A stretch of DNA of 64,000 nucleotides from an uncultured Oscillospiraceae bacterium (GCA_904396495.1 CAJFOJ010000034.1:113-64112); one strand, 5' to 3'; positions 18,786-33,889 are shown, counted from the stretch's first letter. The notes: generated by a model not told the origin, from the sequence alone. Program-made: numbers and translations.

Positions 18786-18981
18786 ATGAAAAAACAAATT
18801 GGAGGAGCTTCGCAATCACCGTAGCAACCGGCGAGAGTGGCTAGCTGACGCCTTAGGAGTGTCCCGGCAGGCTGCCGATTTTCTGGAAAACCGACGGTAC
18901 AACTCGTCCGTCTTGCCGAAGCTTTTTTGTCCTGATGAGGGCAGATTTCATAGCCCTGGCAGCTTACATCATCCCCTATGA
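18786..18981 (+). pseudogene. Frameshifted small XRE-family helix-turn-helix regulator
   Basis: ATG then an A6 run (18789-18794). Removing one A gives MKNKLEELRNHR...LADALGVSRQAADFLENRRYN, a typical short HTH repressor N-terminus. The tail needs further shifts. Confidence 0.4.
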
Positions 18982-19097
18982 CGTTGATATATGAGCTAAC
19001 TCGTCTGCGAGATGCAGGCCCGTCCTTTTTTGAGAGGAAGGAATCACCAAGTGGAGCCTTTACATATACTGTTACCATAGAAAGGGAGGCTATGCTT

Positions 19098-19973
19098 ATG
19101 GTGATACATGTAGTAAAGCAAGGCGATAGCGTCTACTCGGTGGCACAGGAATACGGAGTCTCACCGGACCGCCTGCTCATTGACAACGGGCTGAACGACG
19201 CGTCGGAACTAGTCGTCGGTCAGACTCTGGTAATCCTTTACCCAGCCCAGATACATACCGTCAGGGCGGGGGAGACCCTCCGTTCCATCGCATTGCAATA
19301 CGGCTCTACTGTGACGCAGATTTACCGCAACAACCCCCAACTCCAGGCGCTGCCATCACTGATGGAGGGGGAGGAACTGGTGATTTCCTTCCAGCAGCAG
19401 AAAGAGGGTGTTATGTCGGTTAACGGTTACGCCTATGCTTTTATCGATCGAGACCTCTATCGGGAAACACTGCCGTACTTAAGCTATGTGACCCCTTTTA
19501 CCTACGGGTTTACCTCATTAGGGGAATTGGTGGATCTGGACGATGAATTTATGATTGCAGAGGCCCGGGATTACGGCGTGGCCCCGCTGATGCATCTTTC
19601 CACCCTGACGGAAGAAGGGGGATTCAGCAACGAGCTTGCCCATGTGGTTCTCAACGACATGCAGGTACAGGCAAGGCTTATCAACAACATCATCTCCGCC
19701 ATGCGGAGGAAAAACTATTACGGCTTAGACGTGGACTTCGAGTATGTCTTTCCGGAAGATCGGGACGCCTATACTGCCTTTGTGCGGAACCTGCGCAATC
19801 GCTTAAACCCCCTGGGCTATGAGGTGACGGTGGCCCTGGCTCCCAAGACCTCCGCCAACCAACAGGGGCTCCTCTATCAAGGACATGACTTTCGCGGCCT
19901 AGGGCAGGCGGCTAATTGGGTGCTTTTGATGACCTATGAATGGGGGTACACCTACGGCCCTCTTAATGTATAA
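19098..19973 (+). CDS. 5' segment of a split 2xLysM-GH18 (YaaH/SleL-type spore peptidoglycan hydrolase) gene; reading frame runs 13 nt into the inserted element
   Basis: Two LysM repeats (VKQGDSVYSVAQEYGV..., VRAGETLRSIALQYGS...). GH18 catalytic stretch GLDVDFEY. Host sequence ends at YEWGYTYGP (19960). Confidence 0.8.
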   Translation: MVIHVVKQGDSVYSVAQEYGVSPDRLLIDNGLNDASELVVGQTLVILYPAQIHTVRAGETLRSIALQYGSTVTQIYRNNPQLQALPSLMEGEELVISFQQQKEGVMSVNGYAYAFIDRDLYRETLPYLSYVTPFTYGFTSLGELVDLDDEFMIAEARDYGVAPLMHLSTLTEEGGFSNELAHVVLNDMQVQARLINNIISAMRRKNYYGLDVDFEYVFPEDRDAYTAFVRNLRNRLNPLGYEVTVALAPKTSANQQGLLYQGHDFRGLGQAANWVLLMTYEWGYTYGPLNV

Positions 19974-19976
19974 TAT
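19959..19976 (+). repeat. attL core (CC) plus element-side arm TCTTAATGTATAATAT
   Basis: 14 of 16 positions match the reverse complement of the right-end arm at 36318-36333. Confidence 0.65.
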
Positions 19977-20182
19977 ATCGACATACCGAAAGAACCCCTA
20001 TAAATGGCCTTATTATGGGATTTGTCGTAAATTAGCAAATGAATATTTTTAGAATTTATATAAAATAAAAGTATTTATTTTCTAATTTATTCATAAACAG
20101 GGGGCTTTTTAGTCCAATTTTTATTGATAAAATAATACAAAAAATTAATTGATAGAATATTTGATATAGTATATAAAATAAT

Positions 20183-20218
20183 AAATCCGAGAGATATTTC
20201 TTTCGGATTTTTTTATTT
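20183..20218 (+). terminator. Strong hairpin terminator just inside the left end (insulates cargo from host read-through)
   Basis: AAATCCGAGAGA/TCTTTCGGATTT stem (20183-20210) followed by TTTTATTTT. Confidence 0.55.
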
Positions 20219-20585
20219 TATATTAACAACCACTGACTATATCGGTGGAATGAAAAACTTTAGCGATAGAAAAGATAAGCTTGTCTTGGAACGGACGTTA
20301 CATGAATACAACTTTGAGTTTTTTGCGAATACAATGATTTTTATGAAGCCTAAAGAAAAAAATGACTGTTTAACTGATATTTATTTGGTATACGGCTATC
20401 GGTATTGACATACTCATGTGTATATAATTTTTGAAAAATTTTTTACAATGCATAACTTACAAAAAACAATGCATAAAAGATAAAAATGTAAAATAAAAAC
20501 TATTGAATATATATAAAAAATACATTAATATATAAGCATAATATATTAAGTTTATATCAATTGATGTTTTGAGAAAGGTAATTGT

Positions 20586-21632
20586 ATGAAAAACATATTA
20601 CCAGTTGAATATCCGATTGTCACTGGATATCCTGTAATTGCCAATGCGCTTTCTGTTTTACAGACTCGAAAAGAAACAATGAACTGGATTTTATTAAATC
20701 TAATAGTTCCAATTGTGCTGTATGATGCGGAAAATAACAAAGTGCTTTTAGATTTAGGCGGCGATCATACCCCATGGAATACGAGGTATCTGTATGATGA
20801 TTGCCCATTTTTAACTATTTATCGATATGATAGAACTTGGCTTTATGAACAAAATTTTGATATCATCGATTTTGTCAGGTGGAATATTGATCGGCAACAA
20901 TATTTATATACAGATGTTTGCCGGCGATATATATCTGAATATCAGTGTAATGAGTTAGATAAAATGCATGATTTATTTGTATATGGATATGACGACGAGG
21001 AGAAATCTTTTCATATTGCTGATTTTTTTTACGGGCAGAAATATCATCATGTTACAATTCCTTATAATAACTATAAAACCGCTTTTGATGCCGTAGAAAA
21101 GTATAATTTGCCCCATCGTATTGAGCAAACAACAGATATCGTTGTAATTGCGCACAGAGAACTATTCAATACGTGGTTATCGATTGATTATGAAAATCGA
21201 AATTTTGTTTTAGGAGCTCTAAAAGAGCGACTCTTAGAGTGCCTTGGAAAAACTAATACAAGTTATATGAGACTATGGGATAAAAAACTTGCTTATGGCA
21301 TTAATGGGTATACGTTATTAGAACGATATCTCGAAGATAAAAATTTTTATGACACACAGTTTTCTTACTATAATTGTATATGCGTTCAGTTTTTGCTTGA
21401 GCATAAACAGGTTCTTACCAAAATTTGCAACGACATATTAAAAAATGAGTCGCTTATCCAGGAAGGTGAGAATTTGGTCAAAAGCGCAACTATTTTTAAA
21501 AGGCTCATACTAAAGGCGATGGTAAAAAACAGTTGTACATATAATCAACGACAGAATATAGTGATACTTTTGCGTGAGATGAAAGCACGGGAAATATCCT
21601 TGCTCGAAAATATGCTTAGGGCTATTGGCTAA
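20586..21632 (+). CDS. Hypothetical protein, first gene of the AT-rich cargo cluster
   Basis: 348-aa ORF after GAGAAAGG. Only weak cue is HDLFVYGYDDEEKSFHIADFF, a His-containing strand pair reminiscent of papain-fold enzymes. No confident family. Confidence 0.5.
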   Translation: MKNILPVEYPIVTGYPVIANALSVLQTRKETMNWILLNLIVPIVLYDAENNKVLLDLGGDHTPWNTRYLYDDCPFLTIYRYDRTWLYEQNFDIIDFVRWNIDRQQYLYTDVCRRYISEYQCNELDKMHDLFVYGYDDEEKSFHIADFFYGQKYHHVTIPYNNYKTAFDAVEKYNLPHRIEQTTDIVVIAHRELFNTWLSIDYENRNFVLGALKERLLECLGKTNTSYMRLWDKKLAYGINGYTLLERYLEDKNFYDTQFSYYNCICVQFLLEHKQVLTKICNDILKNESLIQEGENLVKSATIFKRLILKAMVKNSCTYNQRQNIVILLREMKAREISLLENMLRAIG

Positions 21633-21912
21633 GAAGTCTGGATATTTTGCCTCAAAAAAAACCATGTTAAATGATCTTTTAGGTTATGCAACACAGTTGA
21701 GCCGCTTTAATTATTTATAATAAAACAGGAATCTGGTTTTAGAATTGCGGCATTTTTCCTTAGCTGTTTGTAGTAGATGGTGCTTTCTATTCATATAAGT
21801 TGTATATAAAATGATGGAGTGGAAAATTTTCTAGATATTTCATTATATATTTTATGAATACTAATTTTTCAATTATCCAAGTAAACTTTTATAATTGTTG
21901 AAGGAGAATCAT

Positions 21913-23580
21913 ATGAATCGATTTAGTGCTTTAAGATGGTGTCTGAGTCTGATGAGAAAAAATATTATAAAATTTATTTTATTAACTATTTTTTCTACTC
22001 TACTAGGAGTATGCGTGGTCTCTGTGTCAATCATTATGAAGTTATTTATGGATATTGCAACTGGTGCTAATACCATTCCTTTGTATATTGGAATTATTAT
22101 ATCCTGTGTTACGTTATTGATTTTAGGATTCTCACAAATTATGACATGCAAGTATCAAGGAAAACTTTTTAGCGACATAGAAATTGGAGTACGGAATACA
22201 ATTGTAAAAAAAATATATTCGGTTTATCTATTAACGTTCGACAGTAACCCATCCAATTTTTATTTTACTCGTCTGACAAAAGACACGGAAATTATCTCTA
22301 ACTTTTTTTCGAATACTTTAGTGAGTAACATTTTCTTTGAATGCTTTACTTTTCTGATTAGTCTAATACTGATGTTTGTATTGGAGTGGAGACTGACAAC
22401 GGTCTTAGCCATTATTGTTCCTATCCTAATTTTTATAATGATAAAAATATCTCCCAAACTTGAATTATATAATAAGTTGATTTTAACAGATGAGGAAGAA
22501 AACAGAAATGTTATTCAGGATTTTTTAAATCGATATCTTCTATTTAAATCTTATGGTATGCAGAAAAACACAAAGCAGAAAATAAATGATAGTTATGAGC
22601 ACAAGCGCAAAAATATTGACCATCTAAGTATTACAAAAGGCTTAATTGGATTTCTAAACAATTTTTTGGGCGTTGGAATGTTTATAATTGCATTATCCTT
22701 CGGAGCGTTTTTAGTGGCCAATGGAAAAACAACTGTAGGTACTTTGGTTGCAGTAGTAAATTTGGTCAGTTTTTATTATGGCCCATTTCTACACATTTCA
22801 GGATGGCTTTCCGATATAAACTCGGTAAAGGCTTCTGTCAACAGAATTGGAGAAATCTTGAGTATGCCTACTGAAAACGTTCCTGATGATAAAAAATATG
22901 AAAAATTGACTTCTACAAAAGAAGTTAATTTACAGGCAAATAATATTTACTTTTCTTACAATGAAAATAAATCGATTTTACACGGTCTCAACTTAATTGC
23001 ATCAAAAGGTGAAATTGTTGCGATTGTTGGAGAAAATGGAAGTGGGAAAAGTACCCTTCTAAAAATTTTAATGGGTTTTTATCAACCTAATCAGGGAAAC
23101 GTAAACATAGAAATTGACGGCAATAAATTTTCTGGGGTTAGTCTGCGAGATCACATCGTTTATGATCCAAGCGATATTTCCGTATTTGCAGGAACTGTTC
23201 AGGATAATATATGTATGAGTTCAGGTTATGACGCTGATCGATTTAATCAGGCAGTTAGCTGTGCAAATCTAGAAGAATTTATAAAAGAAAAAACGGTTCG
23301 GTACGCTATTGATTCTTCTGGTAACAATTTGTCTAGTGGACAAAAGAAAAGAATATCTTTAGCACGAGTGTTTTATAGCAATAGAGATGTCATTATTTTA
23401 GATGAACCAACGACAAATCTGGATGAGCAGTCAATTGAAGAGCTTTGGATTTCTTTAAAAAACATTAGTGCGAATAAAATCTGCCTGGTGGTGACGCATG
23501 ATCAGTCATTTGCATTGCGTTGCGACCGAGTATTAAAATTGTTAAATAAACAATTGGTTGAGGTGAAAAAAAATGCATGA
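21913..23580 (+). CDS. ABC exporter, fused permease + ATPase (no C39 peptidase domain)
   Basis: Six hydrophobic segments, then Walker A GENGSGKST, signature LSSGQKKR and Walker B ILDEPT. Start after GAAGGAGAA. Confidence 0.85.
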   Translation: MNRFSALRWCLSLMRKNIIKFILLTIFSTLLGVCVVSVSIIMKLFMDIATGANTIPLYIGIIISCVTLLILGFSQIMTCKYQGKLFSDIEIGVRNTIVKKIYSVYLLTFDSNPSNFYFTRLTKDTEIISNFFSNTLVSNIFFECFTFLISLILMFVLEWRLTTVLAIIVPILIFIMIKISPKLELYNKLILTDEEENRNVIQDFLNRYLLFKSYGMQKNTKQKINDSYEHKRKNIDHLSITKGLIGFLNNFLGVGMFIIALSFGAFLVANGKTTVGTLVAVVNLVSFYYGPFLHISGWLSDINSVKASVNRIGEILSMPTENVPDDKKYEKLTSTKEVNLQANNIYFSYNENKSILHGLNLIASKGEIVAIVGENGSGKSTLLKILMGFYQPNQGNVNIEIDGNKFSGVSLRDHIVYDPSDISVFAGTVQDNICMSSGYDADRFNQAVSCANLEEFIKEKTVRYAIDSSGNNLSSGQKKRISLARVFYSNRDVIILDEPTTNLDEQSIEELWISLKNISANKICLVVTHDQSFALRCDRVLKLLNKQLVEVKKNA

Positions 23581-24565
23581 TTTAGAATTTTATCATAATC
23601 ATCGCTATTATCCGTTTCCCAAAACAATGCAAATAGAGATTACTACTGCATGTCCTTTGCGATGTCCACAGTGCTTTATTGATAACTTTAATGCTATTTA
23701 TATTAGTTATAACGATTATGTCAATTTAATCGATGAAGCTTATCATTTAGGGGTAAAAGGAATCGTTCTGTTTGGAGGAGAACCATTACTACATAAAAAA
23801 ATCAACGAATTTATCAAGTATGCAGCCAATTTGGATATTACCGTATTTATCTATACAAGCGGATGGGATATAGAAAAAGTTATTCCTACGGTTAAACAAT
23901 ACCCTAGCAAAGTCGTTATTTTACTTTCTATGAATGGTTCAACTAAAGAAATACACGAGTTATCAAGGGACAATTTTACTCTTACCTTTAATGCAATGAA
24001 AATTTTAATGAATTATGGTGTAAAGTACGGAGTTAACTGGGTGTCCAGGCATGATAATATAGAAGACTTGGAATCGTTAATCCATTTAGCACAAGATTAC
24101 AAAGCCTCGTTTGTCAATATAGTCGGAAACAAAATATCGTCGTCGCATTCGGTGCAACAAGCATTGACAAAAGAAGATTATAGTAAGCTTTTACTAATTT
24201 TTAAAAAGTATAAAGGGTTTCTGACAATTGAAAACTGTAATTCCCAATTACAGAATCTGGCTGGAAAGGTCAGTATATTTTCAGGTTGCACAGCTGGTAT
24301 TCTCAATTGTTCGGTTACGGCAGATATGTACTTTGTTCCGTGCTTACGGTTAATTTATAAAGAAAAATATCCATCTATAAAAGACTATTGGGATAATTCA
24401 CCTATTTTAGCTAAACTGCGTGAACCGATTGTGGCTTCTAAGTATTGTAAAGGTTGTCAGTTTGAAAATAGCTGTAGATATTGCAGGGCACAGTCAAATG
24501 AGTCTTATGAAAATTTTCATGCTGGAATTAAAAATTGCGTAGTTAGGGGAATAGAATTATGTTAA
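23573..24565 (+). CDS. Radical SAM enzyme with C-terminal SPASM/twitch-like Cys-rich domain (maturase 1)
   Basis: CPLRCPQC (CX3CX2C) near the N-terminus. C-terminal Cys cluster: GCTAG...NCS...VPC...CKGCQFENSCRYC. 8-nt overlap with the ABC gene. Confidence 0.85.
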   Translation: MHDLEFYHNHRYYPFPKTMQIEITTACPLRCPQCFIDNFNAIYISYNDYVNLIDEAYHLGVKGIVLFGGEPLLHKKINEFIKYAANLDITVFIYTSGWDIEKVIPTVKQYPSKVVILLSMNGSTKEIHELSRDNFTLTFNAMKILMNYGVKYGVNWVSRHDNIEDLESLIHLAQDYKASFVNIVGNKISSSHSVQQALTKEDYSKLLLIFKKYKGFLTIENCNSQLQNLAGKVSIFSGCTAGILNCSVTADMYFVPCLRLIYKEKYPSIKDYWDNSPILAKLREPIVASKYCKGCQFENSCRYCRAQSNESYENFHAGIKNCVVRGIELC

Positions 24566-25866
24566 AGACATCAAAATGTAATATACTTGTAGATGATGGT
24601 ATAGATTTAACAGCTTATAATGTTTTAAGCGGGCAAGTATCCAGATTCACAGGACAAGCCCGTCTGGACGCGAAAGAAGCATTTGGTTTGCACTTTAATA
24701 ATTCTAAATGCAATGAGTTTTTGTCAGATAAAGGATATTTAATTCAGGAAGAGGTTGACGAAGACCAATATATTGAGACCATAAAGAAAAATTTATTTGA
24801 AAACCCGAATACATTATTTTTGACGATACTTCCTACCGAACAGTGTAATTTTAGGTGTAAGTATTGCCCTGAGGTTACAGAAGCCATCTACATGAATGAT
24901 CAGATGGAAGAACAAATAGTAGATTTTTTGGAGAAGGTTTTACCTCGCTATAAAAAATTAGTAATTGCTTGGTTTGGTGGTGAACCATTGCTAGCTGCGG
25001 GCTTTATTAAATCAATTTCGGCTAAAATAAAAAGAATTTGCAAGCGTAACAACGTGCTTTTCAGTGCCACTATTACCACCAATGGATATTTGCTTAATTC
25101 TAAAATGCTTCAAGAAATGTTGACGTGCAATATTGTTAATTTTTGTGTCACCCTTGATGGTGATTCCAATACTCACGATGCGCAAAGGCAGTTGAAAAAT
25201 GGGTTACCTACATGGAGACATATTGTTAATAATCTTATTGATATCCGTGATAATGTTTCATCGAGATTATTCAATATCATAATAAGGACGAATGTCACTA
25301 CGAAAGTATGTGATAATTATATCAATTATTTCAATTTTCTTAACAATAATTTTAATGCAGACCGCCGTTTTAGCTTCATGTGGAGAAAGGCAGAAGATTG
25401 GGGAAATATTGACCAAAATGATATGGCACTGATTGGTAGCCGTTCCGATTTTACAGAATTTCTTCAGAAAGTAAAAGATTTTGGATTACGTGATAGTCTG
25501 ACCGCTCGTTCTCTCAGACCTATAGATCGTATTTGTACTACTGCAACGAAAAATGCTTTGGTTATTTTTTCCGATGGGCGTATCAGTAAGTGTTCTAGAG
25601 ATGTCCACCCGGAAGTAACAACTCTAGGATATTTAGACGATTTATTATCCGATGCAGATTTCTTTCTTTCTAAATCTCTGGACTTAGTACATAAAACCAG
25701 TTGCCAAACGTGCCAAAGATATTATAATTGTTTAGGACTCGGCTGTCCTCTGGAAGCTGATGAGTGTAATTTGGATTCAAAATATATTATCAATATTCTT
25801 AAGAATATTCAGGATAATGATTTGGAAATAGGAAAAATAAAATCTTTTGGAGGTTGCTATGAATAA
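24559..25866 (+). CDS. Radical SAM/SPASM enzyme with about 90-aa N-terminal extension (possible peptide-recognition domain) (maturase 2)
   Basis: CNFRCKYC motif and GGEPLL. C-terminal CTTAT...KCS...CQTCQRYYNCLGLGCP...EC. 7-nt overlap upstream. Confidence 0.85.
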   Translation: MLKTSKCNILVDDGIDLTAYNVLSGQVSRFTGQARLDAKEAFGLHFNNSKCNEFLSDKGYLIQEEVDEDQYIETIKKNLFENPNTLFLTILPTEQCNFRCKYCPEVTEAIYMNDQMEEQIVDFLEKVLPRYKKLVIAWFGGEPLLAAGFIKSISAKIKRICKRNNVLFSATITTNGYLLNSKMLQEMLTCNIVNFCVTLDGDSNTHDAQRQLKNGLPTWRHIVNNLIDIRDNVSSRLFNIIIRTNVTTKVCDNYINYFNFLNNNFNADRRFSFMWRKAEDWGNIDQNDMALIGSRSDFTEFLQKVKDFGLRDSLTARSLRPIDRICTTATKNALVIFSDGRISKCSRDVHPEVTTLGYLDDLLSDADFFLSKSLDLVHKTSCQTCQRYYNCLGLGCPLEADECNLDSKYIINILKNIQDNDLEIGKIKSFGGCYE

Positions 25867-26125
25867 TATAAAAGAAGAGATTATACAAATATTGATCGAA
25901 TATAGTTTGATCGACCAAGAGTCTGACTTGTACACAGAAAAGTATTCCGATAGCATTGAAGAAATTGATTCTATTTCATACATATCAATATTGGCAAGCA
26001 TAGAAGACCATTTTGATATTAATTTACCTGATGAAGCACTAACAGGAAACGCTTTGAAAAATATTTCCCTCCTAGAACAATTAGTTAGAAACAATTTGCC
26101 AATCAAATTAAATTCCACTAACTAG
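25859..26125 (+). CDS. Acyl/peptidyl carrier protein-like small acidic protein
   Basis: 88 aa. EEIDSISYISILASIEDHF resembles the DSL/phosphopantetheine-Ser helix of carrier proteins. 8-nt overlap with rSAM 2. Confidence 0.6.
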   Translation: MNNIKEEIIQILIEYSLIDQESDLYTEKYSDSIEEIDSISYISILASIEDHFDINLPDEALTGNALKNISLLEQLVRNNLPIKLNSTN

Positions 26126-26211
26126 ACATTACATTTTCTAAAACTCCGTAATCCTGATTTTAAGCGCGTTTTAATGATCATGGATATTTGATAATGAAAG
26201 GAGGGACAATA

Positions 26212-26289
26212 ATGAAGTTGTTGAAAAAGAACAAAGTACAGCATAAAGCGGTACTGAATCAAGAGTTTGTTTGCTTTGGAGTTTGCTAA
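26212..26289 (+). CDS. Candidate RiPP precursor peptide, 25 aa: MKLLKKNKVQHKAVLNQEFVCFGVC
   Basis: Not in the ORF track (too short). SD AAAGGAGGG (26197-26205) lies 6 nt before the ATG. Basic leader, C-terminal CFGVC. Sits between the rSAM/ACP genes and the protease gene. Confidence 0.6.
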   Translation: MKLLKKNKVQHKAVLNQEFVCFGVC

Positions 26290-26322
26290 TATAATTTTTT
26301 TGATGAGGTAAATTGTTTTATC

Positions 26323-26349
26323 ATAAGGGCGGCACTAAGCTGCCCTTAT
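26323..26349 (+). terminator. Hairpin after the precursor sORF (attenuator-type partial terminator)
   Basis: 11-bp stem ATAAGGGCGGC/GCTGCCCTTAT with loop ACTAA and a weak U-tract. The next gene's RBS (AAGGAG) follows immediately. Confidence 0.45.
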
Positions 26350-26367
26350 AATTTTAAGGAGCATATC

Positions 26368-28134
26368 ATGAAAAAAGATGTTAAAATTGCTATTCTAGAT
26401 ACCTATGTAAACATTGATCAACCGTCTCTTAATTATAAAGTGAATATAATAGGGGATAACGGAGATAATATAAAGATCAATCATGCCACTTCGATTTGTG
26501 ACGAAATTATCCGCCAGTGTGCGAATGTTAAAATAGATGTCTATCCTATTTTTGAAAATGCATCTGAAATCGAACCTGGATTAATTATAGAAACTTTATC
26601 TTCGATTTTTTATAGTGATATCAGGTATGATATTATCTTGATGAGTCTAGGAATAGATTCTTTTGAGTATTATGACGAGACATTAAAAATTTGCAATGAA
26701 ATTCGAAAAAAAGGAACGATACTCGTTTCTGCGTTTAACCACGGTGGTGGACTTTCAATTCCAGCAGCTTTTGATTGTGTTTTGGGAGTAGATATTACTG
26801 ATCAACTTAATAAGCCTAATGAGTTTTTCTATCTGGAAAATAAAGCTGTTAATATCGTATGTTCTAATAGGCAGAGACGAGTTGCAGCGGAAACCACAGG
26901 AGATACTATATTAATGGCTGGCACAAGTATTAGTGCCGCTTTCATATGCGGACATATTGCAAAAGGGCTTTCATGTGGACAATGCACCCAAATAGAAAGT
27001 AGCGTAAATGAATATTTGAAAAACACCGCAAAAAAAGTTTATCATGAATCGTTTCGTTCACTTCCAAATAATTGTTTTACCGGAAAGAAATTCGTAGCAT
27101 TTCCTTATAGTAAGGAAATGCTTTCAATGATATATAATAAAGATTTCTTGGGCTACGAACTTGTATCTTTATTCGATTTTAACCATTCCATACATATTGG
27201 TACAGAATTCGAAAGTACAAATAATAAAAAAATTATAGTACAAAATATAAGCCATATTGATTGGGAAGCCTTTGATATTCTTGTTATTGGGCATATAAAC
27301 CAATACAAAAACTCAATAAGCAAATTCGAGAGCATTGTTAGTGGACTGATAGCCAAAGCCCAACAGCATAATAAACAAATATATTGCTTTGATACAGATC
27401 CTATAAAAATTAGTAAAAATGACAGACTTCTTTCACCGCATATAGATGAATGTAATATACCGCAGTTAAATCGTGGGCGATTATGGAATATACCATTGCC
27501 AACCTTAGCAATTGTTGGAACCGGCCCAAGGCAAGGCAAATTTTCTACAATGCTTAAATTACGCAATACTTTAATCGAAAGAAATTATAATGCTTCAATA
27601 ATAGCAACGGAACCTTCCGGCCCACTTTTCAACGCAGAATTTACATTTCCGTATGGGTATAATTCCAGTGTTGAAATAAAAGTACAAGATTATCCTGCAG
27701 TTATTAATCAAATGTTGTATGAGATTTTTCTTAAGAAGAAAGATATTGTTCTTATGGAACTTCAGTCTTCCATTTTGTGTAGAAATTATCATAATATAGA
27801 TCAAAATACTTGTATTCAAAATTCAGTGTTATATGGTTTGAATCCAGACACCCATTTAATTATTATTTATCCGGATGATGACATATCATATGTTAATCGG
27901 ATAAATCAATATCTTACATCACATTTTCAATCTACATTAGTAGGAATATTGGTTTTCCCTGTTACATACAGATATACAATTGCAGGACATATTGAGGAGT
28001 ATCATATGGAAAATACAGATTCCTATAAACAGTGTATTGCACGGTTACAGGAGATAGTCGACGCACCCGTTTTAGGCATGAATGAGTATTTTAATGATAT
28101 TATTTGTGATTCATTAATTAAAAGCCTGACCTAA
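26368..28134 (+). CDS. Subtilisin-like (S8) serine peptidase fused to a C-terminal P-loop-like (DUF1611-like) domain
   Basis: D-H-S triad in subtilase order: IAILDT, NHATSI, GTSISAAFICGH, with SAFNHGGG between. C-terminal half carries LAIVGTGPRQGKFST...IIATEPSG. Confidence 0.7.
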   Translation: MKKDVKIAILDTYVNIDQPSLNYKVNIIGDNGDNIKINHATSICDEIIRQCANVKIDVYPIFENASEIEPGLIIETLSSIFYSDIRYDIILMSLGIDSFEYYDETLKICNEIRKKGTILVSAFNHGGGLSIPAAFDCVLGVDITDQLNKPNEFFYLENKAVNIVCSNRQRRVAAETTGDTILMAGTSISAAFICGHIAKGLSCGQCTQIESSVNEYLKNTAKKVYHESFRSLPNNCFTGKKFVAFPYSKEMLSMIYNKDFLGYELVSLFDFNHSIHIGTEFESTNNKKIIVQNISHIDWEAFDILVIGHINQYKNSISKFESIVSGLIAKAQQHNKQIYCFDTDPIKISKNDRLLSPHIDECNIPQLNRGRLWNIPLPTLAIVGTGPRQGKFSTMLKLRNTLIERNYNASIIATEPSGPLFNAEFTFPYGYNSSVEIKVQDYPAVINQMLYEIFLKKKDIVLMELQSSILCRNYHNIDQNTCIQNSVLYGLNPDTHLIIIYPDDDISYVNRINQYLTSHFQSTLVGILVFPVTYRYTIAGHIEEYHMENTDSYKQCIARLQEIVDAPVLGMNEYFNDIICDSLIKSLT

Positions 28135-28479
28135 CATATGTTTATTATTGATAGAGAGCTTACCCGTTCTCTAACGCCTTTAGGCGGTTTAACAAAGTGA
28201 AAAGTCGGTGCCTCAAGACGCTGAGAGGTAATAATAAGTTTTTAGCCTTTGTGCAAATCACCCGCGAATAAAATATTCTTTAGCTCTAGGGAATTGGCAT
28301 CTTTCTCACAAAGCGAACTAAACGAACAGTTCTTCTGTTTTTTTCAGAACATTTTCCAAACTGGTTTTTATATAAGAAAAATTGTTCTGTAACAAGAGCA
28401 TAGCATAAATCCTACCTGACATTCCATGACATTTTTTTATTAGCTTCATAAGAATACAACTGCATATGGAAGCAAAGCT

Positions 28480-28513
28480 CAAAAAATGGAGATGGATATT
28501 AATCCACCTCCAT
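28480..28513 (-). terminator. Hairpin terminator downstream of the IS200-like relic
   Basis: 12-bp stem with one mismatch (28486-28497 / 28502-28513). On the minus strand it is followed by TTTTTT. Confidence 0.4.
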
Positions 28514-28535
28514 ATAAATTTTTATTCTTTCCTTA

Positions 28536-28727
28536 TCACATAATGGAATAGTTTAATGTAATAGACTCTCTAACAACGTGCCCAAAATGGTAGGCATCAT
28601 AGTATTGTTCCAAATGAAATAAACTCATTTGATCCGTTATCTGATCTTCTTCCAATTGCTTTTTTATGTATTCCTGCATTTGCTTTTTATTCCTTCCTAC
28701 TGTATCCACATAATAGCGGATGGTTCT
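28536..28727 (-). pseudogene. C-terminal relic of an IS200/IS605-family Y1 transposase (TnpA)
   Basis: Open frame reads RYYVDTVGRNKKQMQEYIKKQLEEDQITDQMSLF, matching the conserved TnpA C-terminus as I recall it. No N-terminal HUH/Tyr part and no start codon. Confidence 0.5.
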
Positions 28728-28739
28728 TTAAGCAAAAAG

Positions 28740-28774
28740 AAAGAGAGATATTGCCAAGCGCAATATCTCTCTTT
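28740..28774 (-). terminator. Rho-independent terminator of the PRTase/SLOG operon
   Basis: Perfect 15-bp stem AAAGAGAGATATTGC/GCAATATCTCTCTTT with loop CAAGC. A T-rich run follows on the minus strand. Lies 8 nt past the stop at 28782. Confidence 0.65.
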
Positions 28775-28781
28775 TACTATG

Positions 28782-29348
28782 TCAATTTCCGGATAGAAGT
28801 ACCGAGTTTTTTAATAAACTTGAATATAATAATCTTGTTTTGGGATTGCACAATGCCACTAATTTATTTACATCCTTAAAACTGCTGGCAACTATCATTT
28901 TATTTTGAGTGGTAAGATAAATTAAAACTTTTTTGTTCTGTGAAATCAGATTAATAATATTATTTAAGGTTCCTCGGCTTTCTCCGTCCCAAATCATAAA
29001 ACCATAATCAGCCTCATTAGCCATTGCTATGTCTTTCTGCTTATAGAAATCAAAGCCTCGCACATTGGAGGGCACCGAAACATTATGGATATTCCAACGT
29101 CCAACATTATTTCGTGCTTTTCCATTGCTTGCAAACACGATTACGTTATTATATCCCAGTTGATAATAAAAATTTTGCACGGAAGTGTCTACACCATAAC
29201 AGTCTCCTACAAGTACATCATAACCCTTTTGATAAATAGACATCATTTTTTTTTGAACAGAAGCATCTAAACTTTTTACAGACCTTGCTCCAGCTATAAA
29301 AATTTTCACGGTATAGGTACTCCTTTCAGCATTATTTTGTTTTTGCAA
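28782..29348 (-). CDS. SLOG/DprA-like Rossmann-fold protein (ShosA-like candidate antitoxin)
   Basis: IFIAGARS...YDVLVGDCYGVDTSVQ...VIVFASNG...EADYGFMIWDGESRGTLNNI pattern of DprA/SLOG folds. An alternative GTG start at 29309 follows GAAAGGAG. Confidence 0.55.
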   Translation of the reverse strand: MQKQNNAERSTYTVKIFIAGARSVKSLDASVQKKMMSIYQKGYDVLVGDCYGVDTSVQNFYYQLGYNNVIVFASNGKARNNVGRWNIHNVSVPSNVRGFDFYKQKDIAMANEADYGFMIWDGESRGTLNNIINLISQNKKVLIYLTTQNKMIVASSFKDVNKLVALCNPKTRLLYSSLLKNSVLLSGN

Positions 29349-29901
29349 TGGCTAAGTAATATACTTTTTCAATAAGGGGATCGCTCTTTAATACTGATAC
29401 ACACTCATTTGCTGTTTCGCCAGAAGAATAAAAATCATCAATTAGCAATATATTACAGTGCCTTTTTGCTTCTTTCAGTTTTACAATAGATCCTTTTAGC
29501 GATTTTGAATCTTTTGGCATATTTTTTGCTGGATTACTGTCTATCTTTTTTAAAACTTCCTCAGAATATGGAATACGTAATTTTGAAGCGATGGATTCAG
29601 CGATCATATATACAGGCTGACTAAGTCTTTCGGAAGTTGGTGGTGCAGGAAGAATGATATCTATTTTTATGTCAGATAACCATTGTTTTAAAACATCACA
29701 GCAAATCCCTGCGATTTCATTACTCGTATCAAAATGACCGTTATATTTCATAGCGTGTAGCAATGTGCCTATTGTAGTATAGGAAGTATTGAACTGTGGA
29801 TGCCCAAAAACATCATCGCCAATATATTCGCTTGACTCAACGTATTTATCAATAACAAGACCTTCATCCCAAAGTCCAGTAACAAAAAGGACAGAATTCA
29901 T
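29332..29901 (-). CDS. Type I phosphoribosyltransferase (ComF-like; ShosT-like candidate toxin)
   Basis: PRPP-binding signature ILLIDDFYSSGETANE. Start chosen at the ATG after AGGTGA; the track ORF extends to 29952. Confidence 0.65.
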   Translation of the reverse strand: MNSVLFVTGLWDEGLVIDKYVESSEYIGDDVFGHPQFNTSYTTIGTLLHAMKYNGHFDTSNEIAGICCDVLKQWLSDIKIDIILPAPPTSERLSQPVYMIAESIASKLRIPYSEEVLKKIDSNPAKNMPKDSKSLKGSIVKLKEAKRHCNILLIDDFYSSGETANECVSVLKSDPLIEKVYYLAIAKTK

Positions 29902-29994
29902 GATTATGTTCACCTGCATCTTTCCATAATTATAATATCGCAAAATTGTCAAAAAATCAATGTCCGGTTATCTTTTTCGAAATACAGTTAGATA

Positions 29995-31365
29995 TCACGG
30001 AACAATCGCGCCGCTGCCATCGGTCTGAAGCATCTGGCACTCCTTGATGTCTCCATAGGATTCCTCAAAGAAATAGTAATCCTTGCCTGCAATGGTGCGG
30101 AAGCCTCTGGCTGCGTTTCCTTTGCCTGGCTCAAAGTAGTACCACCTGCCGCCAATCTGCTGCCAGCCTTCCAGCATGGCTCCACTGTCGCTCAGATAAT
30201 ACCATTCGCCTTTCTCTTCCAGCCACCCGGTTTTCATGGCTCCACCCGCATTGAGATAGTACCAGACATTTCCAACCTTGCACCAGCCTATTGCCATCTC
30301 GCCGTTGGATTTGAGGTAATACCATTTGTTCTGGTCGAAAAGCCAGCCTGTCGCCATAGCTCCGCTGGATTTTAAGAAATACCACTTGCCGTCCACCTCG
30401 ACCCAGCCGGTCGCCATGTAGCCGTCGGAATTGAGATAGTACCAAATCCCCTGGACTTTCTTCCAGCCCACCACGTCTTTTCCGTTTTCCCGGTAACGCC
30501 ATTTTCCCGACTGCTTGTACCAGCCCTCAGCGGGTGCAGGCGGTGTGACAGGCTCTTTTCCCGTTTCCAGCAGTTTGCCGTCTATGTACACCCCGTCGAT
30601 TGCCCACGCCTCAAAGAGTGGCAGGGGAAAGTTGTTGCGCTGGCTCCAGGTGACGATGCTGTAGGGCATGGTGAAGAGCCCCTTTTTCCCGAAGCCCTCC
30701 CCCCAGGAATTCAAAACGGTGAATCCATCTTTGTCCCAGCCGACAATCAGCATCATGTGGCCGCCCGCCATGGGTTCCAGGCTTGTGCCGTCGATGCGGG
30801 GCTCCGGCATAATCGGGTTTGTATCCGAAATCTCATAGAAGCTTTTGAATACAATTGTGCCTACTAAAACCGGATACCCGTTGTATACCGCCTGTTTTAC
30901 CTCTTCCGCACCCATGCACTGGTAGTAGTTTTTGATGCGGATATTCTGGGCTTCGTCCTTGAACTGGCTGTATTTGCTGTTAAAGGTGTGCATGGCTTCC
31001 ACCATTTCTTCTTCAAAGGGATACCGGGCAAAGGCAAGGCCTCCGTCTTTCTGAGCGGCTTTCAAAAGGCCTCTCGCCTCTGTCCCTTCTCCCTGGTATT
31101 CGGTGTGTCTCCGGTTGCCGTAGTACCAGGGAAAACTGATGGGTTCGTATTTTCCCGCCTTGCTGAGCAGGATCTCCACACAGGCGCTGAGTGCGTGTGT
31201 GCCGCAGTTTTGGTATTCGCCCTGGTCGTGTACCTGGATGCCGGAAACGTCCAACTGAAAGCTCTCCGGCAGCGGCTCCGCGCCGTATGTAGCCCCAAAG
31301 ATAAAGTCTCTCGGGTCTGGCTCTGTTTGGATGAGGCCAAGGCCTCTGTTTTCATATTCGCTCAT
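29995..31365 (-). CDS. Lysin: papain-like (C1-type) cysteine peptidase domain + about 9 cell-wall-binding (CW_binding_1/choline-binding-type) repeats
   Basis: QGEYQNCGTHALS (Cys), GGHMMLIVGW (His) and LNSWGEGFGKKG. Repeats of the GW..(x)GKWYYL.. type span aa 283-440 (nt about 29998-30519). Confidence 0.75.
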   Translation of the reverse strand: MSEYENRGLGLIQTEPDPRDFIFGATYGAEPLPESFQLDVSGIQVHDQGEYQNCGTHALSACVEILLSKAGKYEPISFPWYYGNRRHTEYQGEGTEARGLLKAAQKDGGLAFARYPFEEEMVEAMHTFNSKYSQFKDEAQNIRIKNYYQCMGAEEVKQAVYNGYPVLVGTIVFKSFYEISDTNPIMPEPRIDGTSLEPMAGGHMMLIVGWDKDGFTVLNSWGEGFGKKGLFTMPYSIVTWSQRNNFPLPLFEAWAIDGVYIDGKLLETGKEPVTPPAPAEGWYKQSGKWRYRENGKDVVGWKKVQGIWYYLNSDGYMATGWVEVDGKWYFLKSSGAMATGWLFDQNKWYYLKSNGEMAIGWCKVGNVWYYLNAGGAMKTGWLEEKGEWYYLSDSGAMLEGWQQIGGRWYYFEPGKGNAARGFRTIAGKDYYFFEESYGDIKECQMLQTDGSGAIVP

Positions 31366-31375
31366 GTTTTCCTCC

Positions 31376-32005
31376 TTACTTTAAATGCCCATATTCATCT
31401 GTTTTAAGCATCTGTCCCTCTTTGATCTTCCCGTACCCCCTGGGCGCGAAACAGTACGTCTTTCCGTCAATGCGCTGGGGGCCGGATGCCGTGTACTTTC
31501 CGTCAAAGTAGTACCAGCAGCCGTCTACAAATGCCCAGTCGTTTTGAAAGGCTCCGTATGTCCAGCCTTTGGAGGTCTTTTTCCAGATATAGAAGATGTG
31601 GTTATCCGGCATCCCTTCATTGGGGAGTCCGAGGATGGTATGGGGCATGACGTTGCGGTCGTACCGGTCACGCACCTGATAATGACAGTGTGCGCCAAAG
31701 CTTAAACCGGTGTTTCCCATAACCCCTAATTTGGTTCCAATCTCTACCCGCTGTCCCACCGAGACCGCCCGGCTTGCCATGTGGCAGAAATAGTGCTTGT
31801 TGCCTTGGGCGTCATCCACCCGGACGTAATTGCCCCATTCCCATGTGACATCTCCGCTGGATTTTGGGATGATGGTAGATGATTTTACTACACCCTCCAC
31901 CGGGCTCACAATGTTTTTGCTGGAAAGCCCAACAATGTCCATCCCGATATGCCCCGAGTGGTATTTCTGGGTCACTTTGAAATTGCCGTTGAAAATCCGT
32001 CTCAC
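31376..32005 (-). CDS. M23 family metallopeptidase lysin with one C-terminal wall-binding repeat
   Basis: HIGMD (HxxxD) and GAHCHYQV (HxH). The C-terminal tail DGKTYCF...YGKIKEGQMLKTDEYG parallels the tail of the neighbouring lysin. Confidence 0.75.
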   Translation of the reverse strand: MRRIFNGNFKVTQKYHSGHIGMDIVGLSSKNIVSPVEGVVKSSTIIPKSSGDVTWEWGNYVRVDDAQGNKHYFCHMASRAVSVGQRVEIGTKLGVMGNTGLSFGAHCHYQVRDRYDRNVMPHTILGLPNEGMPDNHIFYIWKKTSKGWTYGAFQNDWAFVDGCWYYFDGKYTASGPQRIDGKTYCFAPRGYGKIKEGQMLKTDEYGHLK

Positions 32006-32009
32006 AGGA

Positions 32010-32255
32010 TCACCCTCTTTTCTTTTTCAGTTCCCTCATGTACTCGTCTGCCTGTACCGCTTCCTGTGTAAACGAGTTGTTCTTCCACCAAGACCACAAT
32101 GCCGCAGCTGTGGTAAGCAGCAAGGTAAATCCCTCATATGCCTGCTCGTCCGACCATGGAAGGGGATTGTGCCCCGAAATAGTCAAAATTTGATTGAGCA
32201 ATGCAAAAATAAGTACGCCTGTCCGTGCAATGGTGCTGATTGATAAGTTTTTCAT
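32010..32255 (-). CDS. Holin, phage phi-LC3 family-like
   Basis: 81 aa starting at the ATG after ACAGGAGGAA. Two TM segments and a hallmark WWKNNSFTQEA tail. The track ORF start at 32354 is rejected. Confidence 0.75.
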   Translation of the reverse strand: MKNLSISTIARTGVLIFALLNQILTISGHNPLPWSDEQAYEGFTLLLTTAAALWSWWKNNSFTQEAVQADEYMRELKKKRG

Positions 32256-32272
32256 TCTGATTCCTCCTGTCT

Positions 32273-32581
32273 TTACATTCCGATTTGGGTAAATACAAAT
32301 CCCAATACAATTCCGACTACAGCCGTGACGGCATATCCGACTACTTTCCTCCACATTGCGCCGTCCCTGCCTTCCAGCTCTTCCAGCCGCTTTCCCTGCT
32401 CCTGCTGCTCCCTCTGCATATTTTCCATATTGGTCGCCAGCCTCTCTACGGAAACCAGCAGTTTGTTGTTTTGTTCCAATCCTTTTTCCAAATCATTCAG
32501 GCGGTGATGAATTCTTTTGTGTTCTTCGTCCATCCGCTTGACAAATTCGATGTGTTCTGCTCTTGCAATTGGTGTATCCAC
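32273..32581 (-). CDS. XhlA-like lysis-module protein (coiled coil + C-terminal TM)
   Basis: 102 aa. Charged coiled-coil N-terminus, then C-terminal WRKVVGYAVTAVVGIVLGFVF. Sits immediately upstream of the holin, as in PBSX-type cassettes. Confidence 0.6.
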   Translation of the reverse strand: MDTPIARAEHIEFVKRMDEEHKRIHHRLNDLEKGLEQNNKLLVSVERLATNMENMQREQQEQGKRLEELEGRDGAMWRKVVGYAVTAVVGIVLGFVFTQIGM

Positions 32582-32585
32582 GTCC

Positions 32586-33662
32586 TCACTCCTTTAATTT
32601 GTATTCACCCCGGTTGCCACCGGAGCCACACGCGCGGGCCGCAAGGCCCCAGTTAGCAGCGCTGAGGCCAGAGTTCAGAAGAACACAGGCAAAACCACAG
32701 TAGCTCCAAACGTCCAGATGTCCAAAAGCCGGCCATACACGCCAGCTGGTAGTTACTGCGCCGTCACGGTAAACACCTGCACGGTAGCCGGCAGTGGAGG
32801 AGTCTGCAAAGGTCTGTGCAAGCATATATGCCTCCTGGTTGTTTGCATCCCAGTTAAGCTCTGCAATGTATTTCCACGCCGCATCCGTTTCCTTTGGGAT
32901 AGTACCAATCGTTACGGAGTTGGCGCCGTTTCCGTTTTCCGCAATATCGGAAGCCTTGCGGTTAAGGTACACGGTGTACTTTTCGGCATCCTCGTAAAGG
33001 GTGGTATCACCGGGCACCTCGTATGCACCTACCATCACCTCAATGCCCTGGATCTTGCAGGGCTCTTTGCCGGAGGTGTTATTGGTCGGGCTGCCGTCAT
33101 TGCCGGGCACTTCGTCTGTGCTGCCGGTCTGCCACGGGTGCGTCACAATGTAGGTGGCGGTTGTGGTGTTAAAGGGTGTTTCAGTGTCGAGGTTTACAGC
33201 TTTGTATGCTGTGCCGTCCACCGTTACATCCTCCATGCTCAAAATCTTTGTAATATCGCACACATCGTATGTGGTAGCCTTTGCACGGTCATTTGTGCTG
33301 CCGAGTGATACGCAGCTGCCCACCACAAAATATGAGCCTTGTGTGGGGGTAAGCAGCACGCGGGTAACGCCTGTTTCGGCGGCCGCCGCTGTGTATGTGG
33401 TTGAATAACTGCGGCAGCCCGTCATTACCTGCGCCGAGCCGAGCACTGCATATTTAATCTCAAGCATAAGCTGGATAAATGCAATATCGCAAAGGCTGGA
33501 GCCGCAGTATTGGTTGCCCCATTCACGCCATTTTGCGATCTGCCCGTTAAAGCTGATTGAAGTCGATCCCTCGGAGCCGGGGCGCATTGTTGCGGGCTGT
33601 ACGCCGGAAACGCTGGAAAGCAGTCCGGCAGAGTTGTATCCAGCCGCATACTTGGCGTGCAC
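32586..33662 (-). pseudogene. Phage tail-fibre/receptor-binding-like structural gene, apparently frameshifted near its 5' end
   Basis: Long ORF opens at a GTG without an RBS. A well-placed ATG (33721, after AGAAGGA) opens a different frame (MILLRLNDDKTLSIPFAAL...). A single-nt shift near 33660 would join them. Confidence 0.45.
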
Positions 33663-33725
33663 AACAAAGCTGCGAACGGTATGCTTAATGTTTTATCATC
33701 GTTTAGTCGTAATAAAATCATATAA

Positions 33726-33878: not shown

Positions 33879-33889
33879 ATATCATGCTC

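Follow-up and report, generated by a model that had tools for sequence, protein, structure and literature searches.

A cassette of seven genes in a 64,000-nucleotide stretch of DNA from an uncultured Oscillospiraceae bacterium (GCA_904396495.1 CAJFOJ010000034.1:113-64112; the whole stretch is called the window, and all coordinates refer to it) is intact and, judged by its gene content and synteny, belongs to a large and uncurated sister family of the ranthipeptide cassettes of the CcpM and freyrasin types. The cassette genes lie at 20586–28134, all on the plus strand. We put at roughly three in four the probability that they make a peptide synthesized ribosomally and modified post-translationally (RiPP). 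The fuller reading, in which the product would be a Cys-thioether RiPP and removal of its leader would be coupled to a carrier-protein-dependent transfer, is one that we favour with less assurance. The family is placed as a sister because its list of parts equals that of the CcpM cassette but no protein reaches the curated cut-offs. The family is set apart by a protease–DUF1611 fusion and a partner protein that we call orf348, and the branch of the window also by a second radical S-adenosylmethionine (rSAM) enzyme and very small cores. The cassette and the elements within it are as follows.

20586–21632, plus strand: orf348, encoding a protein of 348 residues.
21866–21895, plus strand: promoter-like site TTTTCA-18-TATAAT, a consensus match only, upstream of the operon that runs from the exporter gene to the carrier-protein gene.
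21913 (ATG) or 21895 (TTG) to 23580, plus strand: ATP-binding cassette (ABC) exporter, with matches to ABC_membrane and ABC_tran.
23573–24565, plus strand: rSAM1, 330 residues, with CPLRCPQC at residue 27.
24559–25866, plus strand: rSAM2, 435 residues, with CNFRCKYC at residue 96.
25859–26125, plus strand: carrier protein resembling an acyl carrier protein (ACP), 88 residues, with a D-S-I phosphopantetheine-attachment motif.
26212–26289, plus strand: precursor small open reading frame (sORF), 25 residues, MKLLKKNKVQHKAVLNQEFVCFGVC.
26323–26349, plus strand: GC-rich stem-loop in the gap that separates the precursor and fusion genes.
26368–28134, plus strand: subtilase–DUF1611 fusion, 588 residues.

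An earlier note on this DNA had described these features, and all of them are found within 1 nt of the positions that it gave, the start of the small open reading frame (ORF) being adjusted to 26212. All seven ORFs are intact. The ABC, rSAM1, rSAM2, and ACP genes overlap by exactly 8, 7, and 8 nt, with the ACP gene starting at the ATG at 25859, so the overlaps from which the note had read translational coupling are exact. The note had also set the region apart as an AT-rich block unlike its flanks, and the GC content agrees: the block is sharply bounded at ~19,975 and ~29,990, with 0.27–0.35 inside versus ~0.49–0.56 in the host flanks (on average, ~31% for the cassette block and ~52% for the flanks). 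Promoter-like sites in this AT-rich block do not exceed the count expected from shuffled sequences. The ratio of nonsynonymous to synonymous substitution rates (dN/dS) against the closest relative is 0.06–0.14 for six of the proteins, with synonymous sites near saturation. What is observed directly is the content and integrity of the genes, the conservation of catalytic residues, the synteny of the family, the conservation of the precursor, and purifying selection.

The family is large. A word-indexed search retrieves only 8 relatives of the fusion, and an exhaustive profile search retrieves 955 fusion representatives of 50%-identity clusters at E ≤ 1e-30, at least 150 of them full length at E < 1e-156. 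In a scan of one genome per species, 79 loci in named genomes share the cassette. The earlier note had called the cluster an orphan, which is right for its product only; the cassette itself is one of a numerous kind. The loci come from Lachnospiraceae, Oscillospiraceae, Acetatifactor, Faecalimonas, Longibaculum muris, Treponema, and many Latescibacterota, as well as from Paenibacillus polysaccharolyticus, Tumebacillus flagellatus, Fumia xinanensis, and Lutispora thermophila. The loci were annotated with profiles made from the window cassette, genes being counted within 8 kb of a full-length fusion; many contigs are truncated, and the co-occurrence counts are therefore lower bounds. Among 53 loci of the Firmicutes/spirochaete type, 50 have an ABC exporter, 43 an ACP-like protein, 43 an rSAM2-like protein, 10 an AgrB, and 8 an rSAM1-like protein.

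The 22 Latescibacterota loci differ in composition: an ACP-like protein is found in 16 and an rSAM2-like protein in one, and orf348-like genes persist. In the loci of Latescibacterota metagenome-assembled genomes (MAGs; L063–L087, e.g. L086 at 3280–15808), the fusion is accompanied by a bona fide PP-binding protein and a protein like orf348, and a genome may have as many as three copies. Their neighbours are genes for HlyD, ABC, Rce1-like CAAX protease, and AraC-type response-regulator proteins, with no rSAM gene in, for example, L086. No convincing precursor was found in L063–L087.

The precursor gene is preceded by a strong Shine–Dalgarno sequence (GAAAGGAGGG, 7 nt upstream) and encodes a Lys-rich leader, an L-N-x-E junction, and a putative core, FVCFGVC. 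The closest relatives of rSAM2 (70%, 55%, 46%, and ~39% identical) are encoded in loci of identical gene order with a conserved peptide gene in the equivalent gap, and the peptides at this position are MKLMKKKKVQQKAVLNQEFTCFGLC, MRKLRKPHKMESIAILNVDFTCFGLC, MKKLRKLRKTNYKAILNAEFTCFNALC, and MKRLKKIRKSSSKAVLNVELVCFNGLC. Five independent relatives keep the precursor gene and share the core motif LN-x-(D/E)-F-x-C-F-(G/NA)-x-C-stop. Compared with the closest relative, the gene has a dN/dS of 0.145, and the codons of Cys21 and Phe22 contain synonymous changes. Because the reading frame is conserved in relatives together with its core motif and has this low dN/dS, the 25-codon sORF is, on comparative evidence, a real gene rather than a chance ORF. 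One relative (L003) has a truncated precursor and no protease, which resembles decay.

Precursors of a common design are found across the family: 45 of 87 loci encode at least one such peptide, giving 49 unique sequences, 37 of which have a [Y/F]x0-4E junction. Such a precursor begins with an N-terminus rich in Lys/Arg (MKKxLKKP...), continues with a hydrophobic patch whose last residues are (L/A)-Y, has a near-universal Glu 1–4 residues further on, and closes with a Cys-containing tail. The window precursor (...AVLNQE followed by FVCFGVC) follows the design except that Asn replaces Tyr. With the conserved Glu taken as the end of the leader, the cores would be 6–8 residues long in 13 peptides; many other family precursors have long cores of 20–60 residues. 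The core of ~7 residues put forward in the earlier note is plausible, since it is the segment after the family-wide Glu and has counterparts of similar length in those 13 peptides; the cleavage site is a predicted one. At E ≤ 10, neither the precursor of the window nor nine others from the family matched a precursor model in NCBIfam, such scans having low power for short peptides, and the only match, to HspR (E 0.028), was set aside as spurious.

Three loci in Treponema MAGs (L041, L042, and L048) carry arrays of three to six longer precursor genes (40–75 residues) that share the leader MKKTLYKPE..D..VN.Y.NE and differ in their multi-Cys cores. The arrays suggest that one enzyme set serves a library of precursors.

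The stem-loop downstream of the precursor gene folds with -21.7 kcal/mol, versus -7.8 ± 2.0 kcal/mol for shuffled sequences. Comparable hairpins of unrelated sequence lie at the equivalent position in 8 of 10 loci tested (-19 to -27 kcal/mol versus -4 to -14 kcal/mol for shuffles). A terminator scan does not call the hairpin at 26323–26349, which has a weak T-run. Stem-loops are common after RiPP precursor genes, where they set the ratio of precursor to enzyme. The hairpin is probably an attenuator or an RNA-stability element that tunes this ratio.

Both rSAM enzymes score above the cut-off of PF04055 (Radical_SAM, 65.6 bits for rSAM1), and both have the CX3CX2C motif and the C-terminal seven-Cys region of the radical-SAM/SPASM superfamily; the Pfam SPASM model is absent from their matches at E ≤ 0.01. 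In rSAM1, the cluster cysteines are C27/31/34 plus C239/257/292/295/301/304/322, and C222/239/257/292/295/301/304/322 are 100% conserved in nine homologues. In rSAM2, they are C96/100/103 plus C326/345/382/385/391/396/403, the latter seven being 87–100% conserved in 45 homologues. The motifs and C-terminal Cys clusters that the earlier note had pointed out are therefore conserved features of both enzymes.

In rSAM2, ~95 residues precede the cluster motif (the note had estimated an N-terminal extension of ~90), and this extension appears to sit where CteB-type enzymes carry a leader-recognition domain. In hidden Markov model (HMM) searches of the products against Pfam and NCBIfam, which the note had proposed, the top NCBIfam matches of rSAM2 are all maturases of Cys-containing peptides, and all lie under their cut-offs: TIGR04463, 142.5 bits; Clo7bot, 129.7; FlmE/OhkG, 120.6; CefB, 117.9; geopeptide, 112; PapB, 109; and CcpM, 90.6. 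QhpD (54.6 bits) and anSME (53.7 bits) are matched more weakly. Among solved structures, CteB gives the best match (5WGG, E 6.4e-13). rSAM2 is a probable thioether-forming enzyme, a chemistry that we infer from its homology to PapB, CteB, and QhpD.

rSAM1 has no N-terminal recognition domain and is a compact SPASM enzyme. Its top NCBIfam matches are generic SPASM enzymes (NirJ2, ScmE, AhbD, StsB, MftC, and PqqE) at ~60–77 bits, far under cut-off, and its best matches in the PDB are BlsE, SkfB, and PqqE at ~1e-5. As its count among the Firmicutes/spirochaete-type loci illustrates, rSAM1 is a subfamily-specific add-on and no hallmark of the family.

The N-terminal half of the fusion is a QhpE-like subtilase (peptidase S8) without signal peptide or pro-domain. 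It matches PF00082 with 25.4 bits (cut-off 21.8) and subtilisins in Foldseek at ~1e-9, and its triad (D11, H39, and S187) is invariant in nine family members. The match to QhpE itself (NF049966) has 69.2 bits, under the cut-off of 165. The C-terminal half is a complete DUF1611 domain with a P-loop (PF07755, 38.7 bits; cut-off 25), and the P-loop motif, GTxxxQGKF(S/T), is invariant. Residues 240–524 match TIGR04066 with 60.1 bits (cut-off 200). The AlphaFold2 (AF2) model of the fusion is confident (predicted local distance difference test score, pLDDT, 85.8), and its Foldseek matches include 2OBN (1.5e-12), 2G0T (2.5e-11), and 7XRJ (1.7e-9), the last deposited as 'N-acetyltransferase DgcN'. Profile and fold thus agree on a DUF1611/DgcN-like domain, for which an N-acetyltransferase activity is predicted at most.

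The serine of the D-S motif of the carrier protein is invariant in 65 of 65 family members. The window protein gives weak matches of 16–28 bits to many generic ACP models and no match to TIGR04069 at E ≤ 0.01; the Latescibacterota homologue in L086 reaches 42.7 bits on PF00550.

The orf348 protein of the window has no match in Pfam, NCBIfam, PADLOC, or PHROGs, and its close relatives are few: four in all, of which Fumia xinanensis has two. An iterated profile retrieves full-length relatives (E 1e-50 to 1e-120; 61 ORFs) in most fusion-bearing loci, and in Latescibacterota the orf348-like gene lies directly 3' of the carrier-protein gene. Eight of 30 family members match the Pfam family BtrH_N (PF14399) at E ≤ 0.01, with a best E of 5.9e-7; the L086 copy scores 26.8 bits, under the cut-off of 29.7. 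The family conserves W34, Y106, H128, G134, D136, G238, and E272-H273-K274. By these profile matches and its synteny, orf348 is a core member of the cassette, from a previously unannotated family related to BtrH_N at the family level only. BtrH_N is a family of ACP-to-amine acyltransferases; in butirosin biosynthesis, BtrH moves an acyl group from the carrier BtrI onto an amine.

Other assignments for orf348 were tried and dropped. Papain-like Cys-His catalysis was rejected, as His-x5-G-Y-D is kept and no Cys/Ser nucleophile is conserved next to Trp34. The AF2 model of orf348, made from five sequences, is of low confidence (pLDDT 54.9), and its Foldseek likeness to AziU2/U3 (E ~1e-3; template-modelling (TM) score 0.31; root-mean-square deviation >10 Å) was judged unreliable and left unused. 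A profile of the orf348 family gave no meaningful match among PDB sequences. PADLOC gave no matches for orf348 and the fusion, which indicates that the cassette is not a known defence system.

The ABC exporter is a fused permease and ATPase (ABC_membrane, 97.5 bits; ABC_tran, 102.5 bits). A C39 peptidase domain is absent, as alignments to bacteriocin exporters that carry the peptidase begin near profile position 150; this absence agrees with the subtilase as the remover of the leader. The cassette of one close relative (L006/L009, 10863–15574) has additional genes, namely a third radical-SAM gene, one of the orf348 family, and genes for an AMP-binding (adenylating) enzyme and a second PP-binding protein. 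These extra genes could be the acyl-activation machinery that is missing from the window cassette.

With a precursor, a leader protease, and an exporter beside the rSAM genes, the gene content supports the complete RiPP-like rSAM pathway that the earlier note had predicted. In the pathway that we propose, the N-terminal domain of rSAM2 would bind the 25-residue precursor through its Lys-rich leader. The SAM-radical chemistry and the SPASM clusters of rSAM2 would then link Cys21 and/or Cys25 by a thioether to a carbon beside a carboxylate or carboxamide, the candidate acceptors being Glu18, the subfamily-invariant Asn16, and the C-terminal residue. PapB joins Cys to the carbon next to an Asp/Glu carboxylate at spacings of 0–6 residues and needs only a thiol and a carboxylate, the C-terminal carboxylate included (PMC9413430, PMC12373016). 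A link from Cys21 to the C-terminal residue would have the native i to i+4 spacing of PapB. In the tiny-core subfamily (...CF(G/NA)xC-type or similar), rSAM1 may add a second modification. The cytoplasmic subtilase half would cut the leader near the (Y/N)-x-E junction to give the core of ~7 residues. The DUF1611 half, the presumably phosphopantetheinylated carrier, and orf348 would perform a carrier-dependent transfer coupled to leader removal, most likely by acylating the amine that cleavage has exposed; no other step of the proposal is as weak. Finally, the ABC exporter would secrete the product.

Tentatively, the DUF1611 domain, the carrier, and orf348 may work as a single module in concert with leader cleavage. 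This is suggested by the persistence of the trio without rSAM, the invariance of the carrier serine, the fusion of DUF1611 to the protease, the annotation of DgcN as an N-acetyltransferase, and the role of BtrH as an ACP-to-amine transferase. Acyl transfer is the most economical choice, and tethering of the peptide for cyclization a more radical one. It is somewhat doubtful, at present, that the trio is a previously unrecognized carrier-dependent module of RiPP tailoring that N-acylates the freed amine of the core, or tethers its C-terminus and cyclizes it.

Several observations weigh against the proposed pathway. All proteins of the window fall short of the curated cut-offs for the CcpM cassette, for PapB and QhpE, and for every other named family, so that the chemistry has to be carried over from remote relatives. 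The native acceptors of PapB lie C-terminal to the Cys, and the only such carboxylate here is the C-terminus. Since the spacing from Glu to Cys is highly variable across the family (+1 to >+10), Glu was rejected as a general crosslink acceptor; the variation argues that the conserved Glu marks the junction of leader and core, for recognition or cleavage, rather than a crosslink site. For the transfer step, the ACP-like protein scores 20.7 bits on PF00550, marginally under the cut-off of 20.8, and the window orf348 has no BtrH_N match at E ≤ 0.01, its family conserving no Cys nucleophile. The cassette contains neither an acyl-activating enzyme nor a phosphopantetheinyl transferase. Among DUF1611 proteins, DgcN is the only one found with an assigned activity.

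The alternative that survives best, though an unlikely one, keeps the crosslinked RiPP and gives the trio another role: the carrier, DUF1611, and orf348 would activate the C-terminus of the peptide and tether it for cyclization (head-to-tail or thiolactone), or would be a chaperone, a scaffold, or an immunity function. The invariant P-loop of DUF1611 would suit a nucleotide-dependent activation, the tiny cores of the 13 peptides have a free C-terminus, and both the missing acyl-activating enzyme and the missing Cys nucleophile of orf348 fit as well. However, DgcN is annotated as an N-acetyltransferase and not as a ligase, head-to-tail cyclization is less obvious for the cores of 20–60 residues in many members, and the invariant carrier serine speaks against a purely structural role.

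Modules of the agr type adjoin the cassette in about one locus in five, namely the closest relative and nine other loci. The agr-bearing loci are L001/L002, L006, L007, L010, L019, L035, L044, L049, L052, L054, and L058, and the modules consist of AgrB, a LytTR regulator, a histidine kinase, and a small AgrD-like ORF whose peptide differs from the rSAM precursor. Their presence in 10 of the 53 loci raises the idea that the product is not an antimicrobial but a quorum-sensing-type signal, a small hydrophobic cyclic peptide of the size of a staphylococcal autoinducing peptide (AIP). The ring of an AIP consists of a Cys plus four residues, and the core end C-F-G-V-C-COOH has the same length. Set against this, the agr modules have AgrD-like peptides of their own, and the simpler reading is that agr regulates the cassette. 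The cassette encodes no receptor, and a tblastn search found no agr genes or remnants in the window (all E > 0.2). An upstream search for LytTR/AgrA-type direct repeats in the window and 11 relatives gave no match, with a regular-expression pattern that is possibly too strict. On balance, a signal is improbable.

An element of ~16.4 kb (19947–36328) splits a LysM-LysM-GH18 (YaaH/SleL-like) gene and carries the cassette as cargo. Its boundaries and recombinase are as follows.

19947–19953: left junction, core TACACCT, inside the LysM-LysM-GH18 gene, with an inferred crossover point.
34649–36310, plus strand: large serine recombinase, 553 residues, matching the integrase family phrog_95 at E 4.8e-120, directly upstream of the 3' part of the GH18 gene.
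36322–36328: right junction, core TATACCT.

The 5' part of the GH18 gene (18978–19973) ends within the GH18 domain, and the 3' part lies within 36307–36756 (...TPPMAVSPIDKVREVLDYA...). Joining TACACCT to TATACCT restores the frame, ...YEWGYT running into LTPPMAVSPIDKV.... The halves are in frame and the large serine recombinase lies at the junction; excision is predicted only. The split gene, the serine integrase, and the frame-restoring junction cores bear out the claim of the earlier note that the cluster is cargo of an intervening element. The element is a mosaic in composition: AT-rich cargo at 20–30 kb, a phage lysis remnant of ~52% GC on the minus strand (29995–33662; an endolysin with choline-binding repeats, an M23 peptidase, two holins, and a tail-like fragment), and an AT-rich integrase gene. 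The cassette was acquired horizontally, as cargo of an element that has a serine integrase and lies within a GH18 gene of the sporulation type. Because the interrupted gene is of the sporulation type, the inheritance and expression of the cluster may be tied to differentiation.

Such a cargo could be silent or decaying in its host, its regulators having been left behind on acquisition. No regulator adjoins the cassette, whereas an agr module does so in its closest relative. The composition is markedly foreign, and the relative L003 is clearly decayed, with its truncated precursor and no protease. Nevertheless, all seven ORFs are intact, the catalytic residues and the translational coupling are preserved, and dN/dS is 0.06–0.15, though this reflects long-term and not recent selection. 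A silent cluster is thus also improbable. Least likely by far is a non-RiPP role, in which maturation of a protein subunit or a cofactor would be the task of the QhpE-like protease and the rSAM enzymes, in the manner of QhpD/QhpE for quinohemoprotein amine dehydrogenase or of anSME for sulfatases: the subtilase half is indeed nearest QhpE (69 bits here and 95–134 in relatives) and rSAM2 has its weak QhpD and anSME matches, but these two scores lie far under those of the peptide maturases, no qhpA/B/C or sulfatase genes lie beside the window cassette, a conserved gene for a small leader-bearing peptide is adjacent and such peptides occur in 45 of 87 loci, and ABC exporters are present in nearly all of the Firmicutes/spirochaete-type loci (50 of 53), so the anSME-like or other non-RiPP clade that the earlier note had raised as an alternative finds little room.

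Other features lie around the cassette. Between the left end of the element and orf348 are a 52-codon ORF, MKNFSDRKDKLVLERTLHEYNFEFFANTMIFMKPKEKNDCLTDIYLVYGYRY (20250–20408, plus strand), and a strong terminator-like hairpin (20183–20210, plus strand), possibly the remains of a gene. Two genes overlap on the minus strand where the AT-rich block ends on the right (28782–29348 and 29332–29952). The product of 206 residues is phosphoribosyltransferase (PRTase)-like, with PADLOC matches to PsyrT (1.5e-14) and ShosT (1e-4), and its partner of 188 residues has no match there. The pair may be a toxin–antitoxin or defence pair and a second cargo; strong terminators follow it at 28774–28740 and 28513–28486. 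Downstream of the GH18 gene, the host region 37091–61900 resembles a capsule or exopolysaccharide locus, as judged from translations only. Its products include a Wzz-like chain-length protein, a CapD-like dehydratase, an ATPase resembling tyrosine kinases, a PHP phosphatase-like protein, and an aminotransferase, and the plus strand has many more ORFs of lower GC content.

Cassettes with rSAM/SPASM enzymes and Cys-rich peptides have been catalogued computationally for years, and those of the CcpM type have biochemical analogues, such as PapB, for the rSAM step only. The family described here adds three clues, the fusion of DUF1611 to the protease, the invariant carrier serine, and a third constant partner related to BtrH_N, and together they lead to a testable hypothesis of a carrier-dependent transfer coupled to leader removal. 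Newly recognized are the membership of orf348 in the cassette, the invariance of the carrier serine, the DgcN fold of the fusion, and the adjacency of agr modules. If the trio acts as proposed, acylated or cyclic RiPPs would be made by an enzymatic route that is new, common to hundreds of uncharacterized clusters and to the accessory genes of the CcpM cassette, which have long lacked an explanation. The family is widespread in Clostridia of the gut and rumen, Bacilli, spirochaetes, and Latescibacterota. Because it is large, widespread, and often found beside agr modules, with cores of 6–8 residues, its products could be abundant, overlooked signals or narrow-spectrum antimicrobials.

Among known systems, the element as a whole resembles the skin-type elements of sporulation genes, which are excised by large serine recombinases and likewise split a sporulation-type gene, have a large serine recombinase at one junction, and contain prophage remnants. 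To our knowledge, a RiPP cassette and a PRTase pair are an atypical cargo among the sporulation-gene elements described.

For the transfer step, the C-terminal half of the fusion has the two-lobed DUF1611 fold of DgcN (7XRJ; TM score 0.64 on the target), at 12% sequence identity. Unlike the fusion, DgcN is a stand-alone protein of amino-acid catabolism. The pairing of a carrier protein with a BtrH_N-related protein recalls BtrI/BtrH of butirosin biosynthesis, a conceptual precedent for acyl transfer from a carrier to an amine. In the literature, we found no link of BtrH or DUF1611 to RiPPs. Goadvionins, lipolanthines, and selidamides give a precedent for N-acylation of RiPPs. Known acylated RiPPs depend on GNAT-type transferases together with polyketide synthase/fatty acid synthase (PKS/FAS) or acyl-activating genes, whereas the window cassette has no GNAT-type, PKS/FAS, or acyl-activating gene.

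For leader removal, the closest likeness is to the QhpC/QhpD/QhpE system, which matures the gamma subunit of quinohemoprotein amine dehydrogenase. QhpE is a cytoplasmic leader protease that works with QhpD, a thioether-forming rSAM enzyme, and the subtilase half of the fusion is most similar to it. The differences are the sub-threshold score (69 versus 165 bits), the absence of dehydrogenase subunit genes, a predicted substrate that is an exported peptide of 25 residues, and the fusion of the protease to DUF1611.

In its parts list, the cassette resembles those of the CcpM type. The CcpM-type SacP23 cluster of Paenibacillus polymyxa encodes an ABC exporter, a TIGR04068 rSAM enzyme, a TIGR04066 protein, an ACP-related TIGR04069 protein, and a subtilase (PMC10731318). 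The two part lists are equal, including the Cys-containing precursor, and homology is detectable for the rSAM enzyme and the TIGR04066 domain, so the kinship to the clostridial CcpM cassette that the earlier note had suggested is that of a distant relative. In the models of that cassette (TIGR04065–TIGR04069), rSAM2 scores 90.6 bits on TIGR04068 (cut-off 500) and the fusion 60.1 bits on TIGR04066 (cut-off 200), and there is no match to TIGR04069 or to a precursor model. The relatives in named genomes are likewise under the cut-offs (CcpM, 79–99 versus 500; TIGR04066, 71–94 versus 200; QhpE, 95–134 versus 165), again with no TIGR04069 or precursor-model match. The window cassette differs in that its protease and TIGR04066-like domain are fused, in a second rSAM enzyme and an orf348-family protein, and in a core of ~7 residues versus 42 in SacP23. 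Literature on the CcpM cassette was found to consist of genome-mining mentions, with no product structure and no published function for the accessory proteins. With all scores under curated cut-offs, the statement of the earlier note that no characterized RiPP class matches holds.

For the crosslinking step, the closest solved structure is that of CteB, the thioether synthase of the SCIFF (thermocellin) sacti-/ranthipeptide system, in which sulfur would be joined to an alpha (sacti-) or a non-alpha (ranthi-) carbon of the acceptor; CteB has the same domain order of N-terminal extension, rSAM core, and SPASM domain; the SCIFF maturase model gives 68 bits versus a cut-off of 425, and the precursor is unrelated to SCIFF peptides. 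A further likeness is to the freyrasin pair PapA/PapB. rSAM2 is homologous to PapB (109 bits over 314 residues, under the cut-off of 340), and the leader of PapA (…VKEPIRAY-G-core) resembles the leaders of the window family. The window differs from PapA/PapB in having two rSAM enzymes and no Asp/Glu after a Cys in the core. The rule of thiol plus carboxylate, with the C-terminal carboxylate included, fits C-F-G-V-C-COOH, and PapB is the best biochemical analogue for the rSAM step of the cassette.

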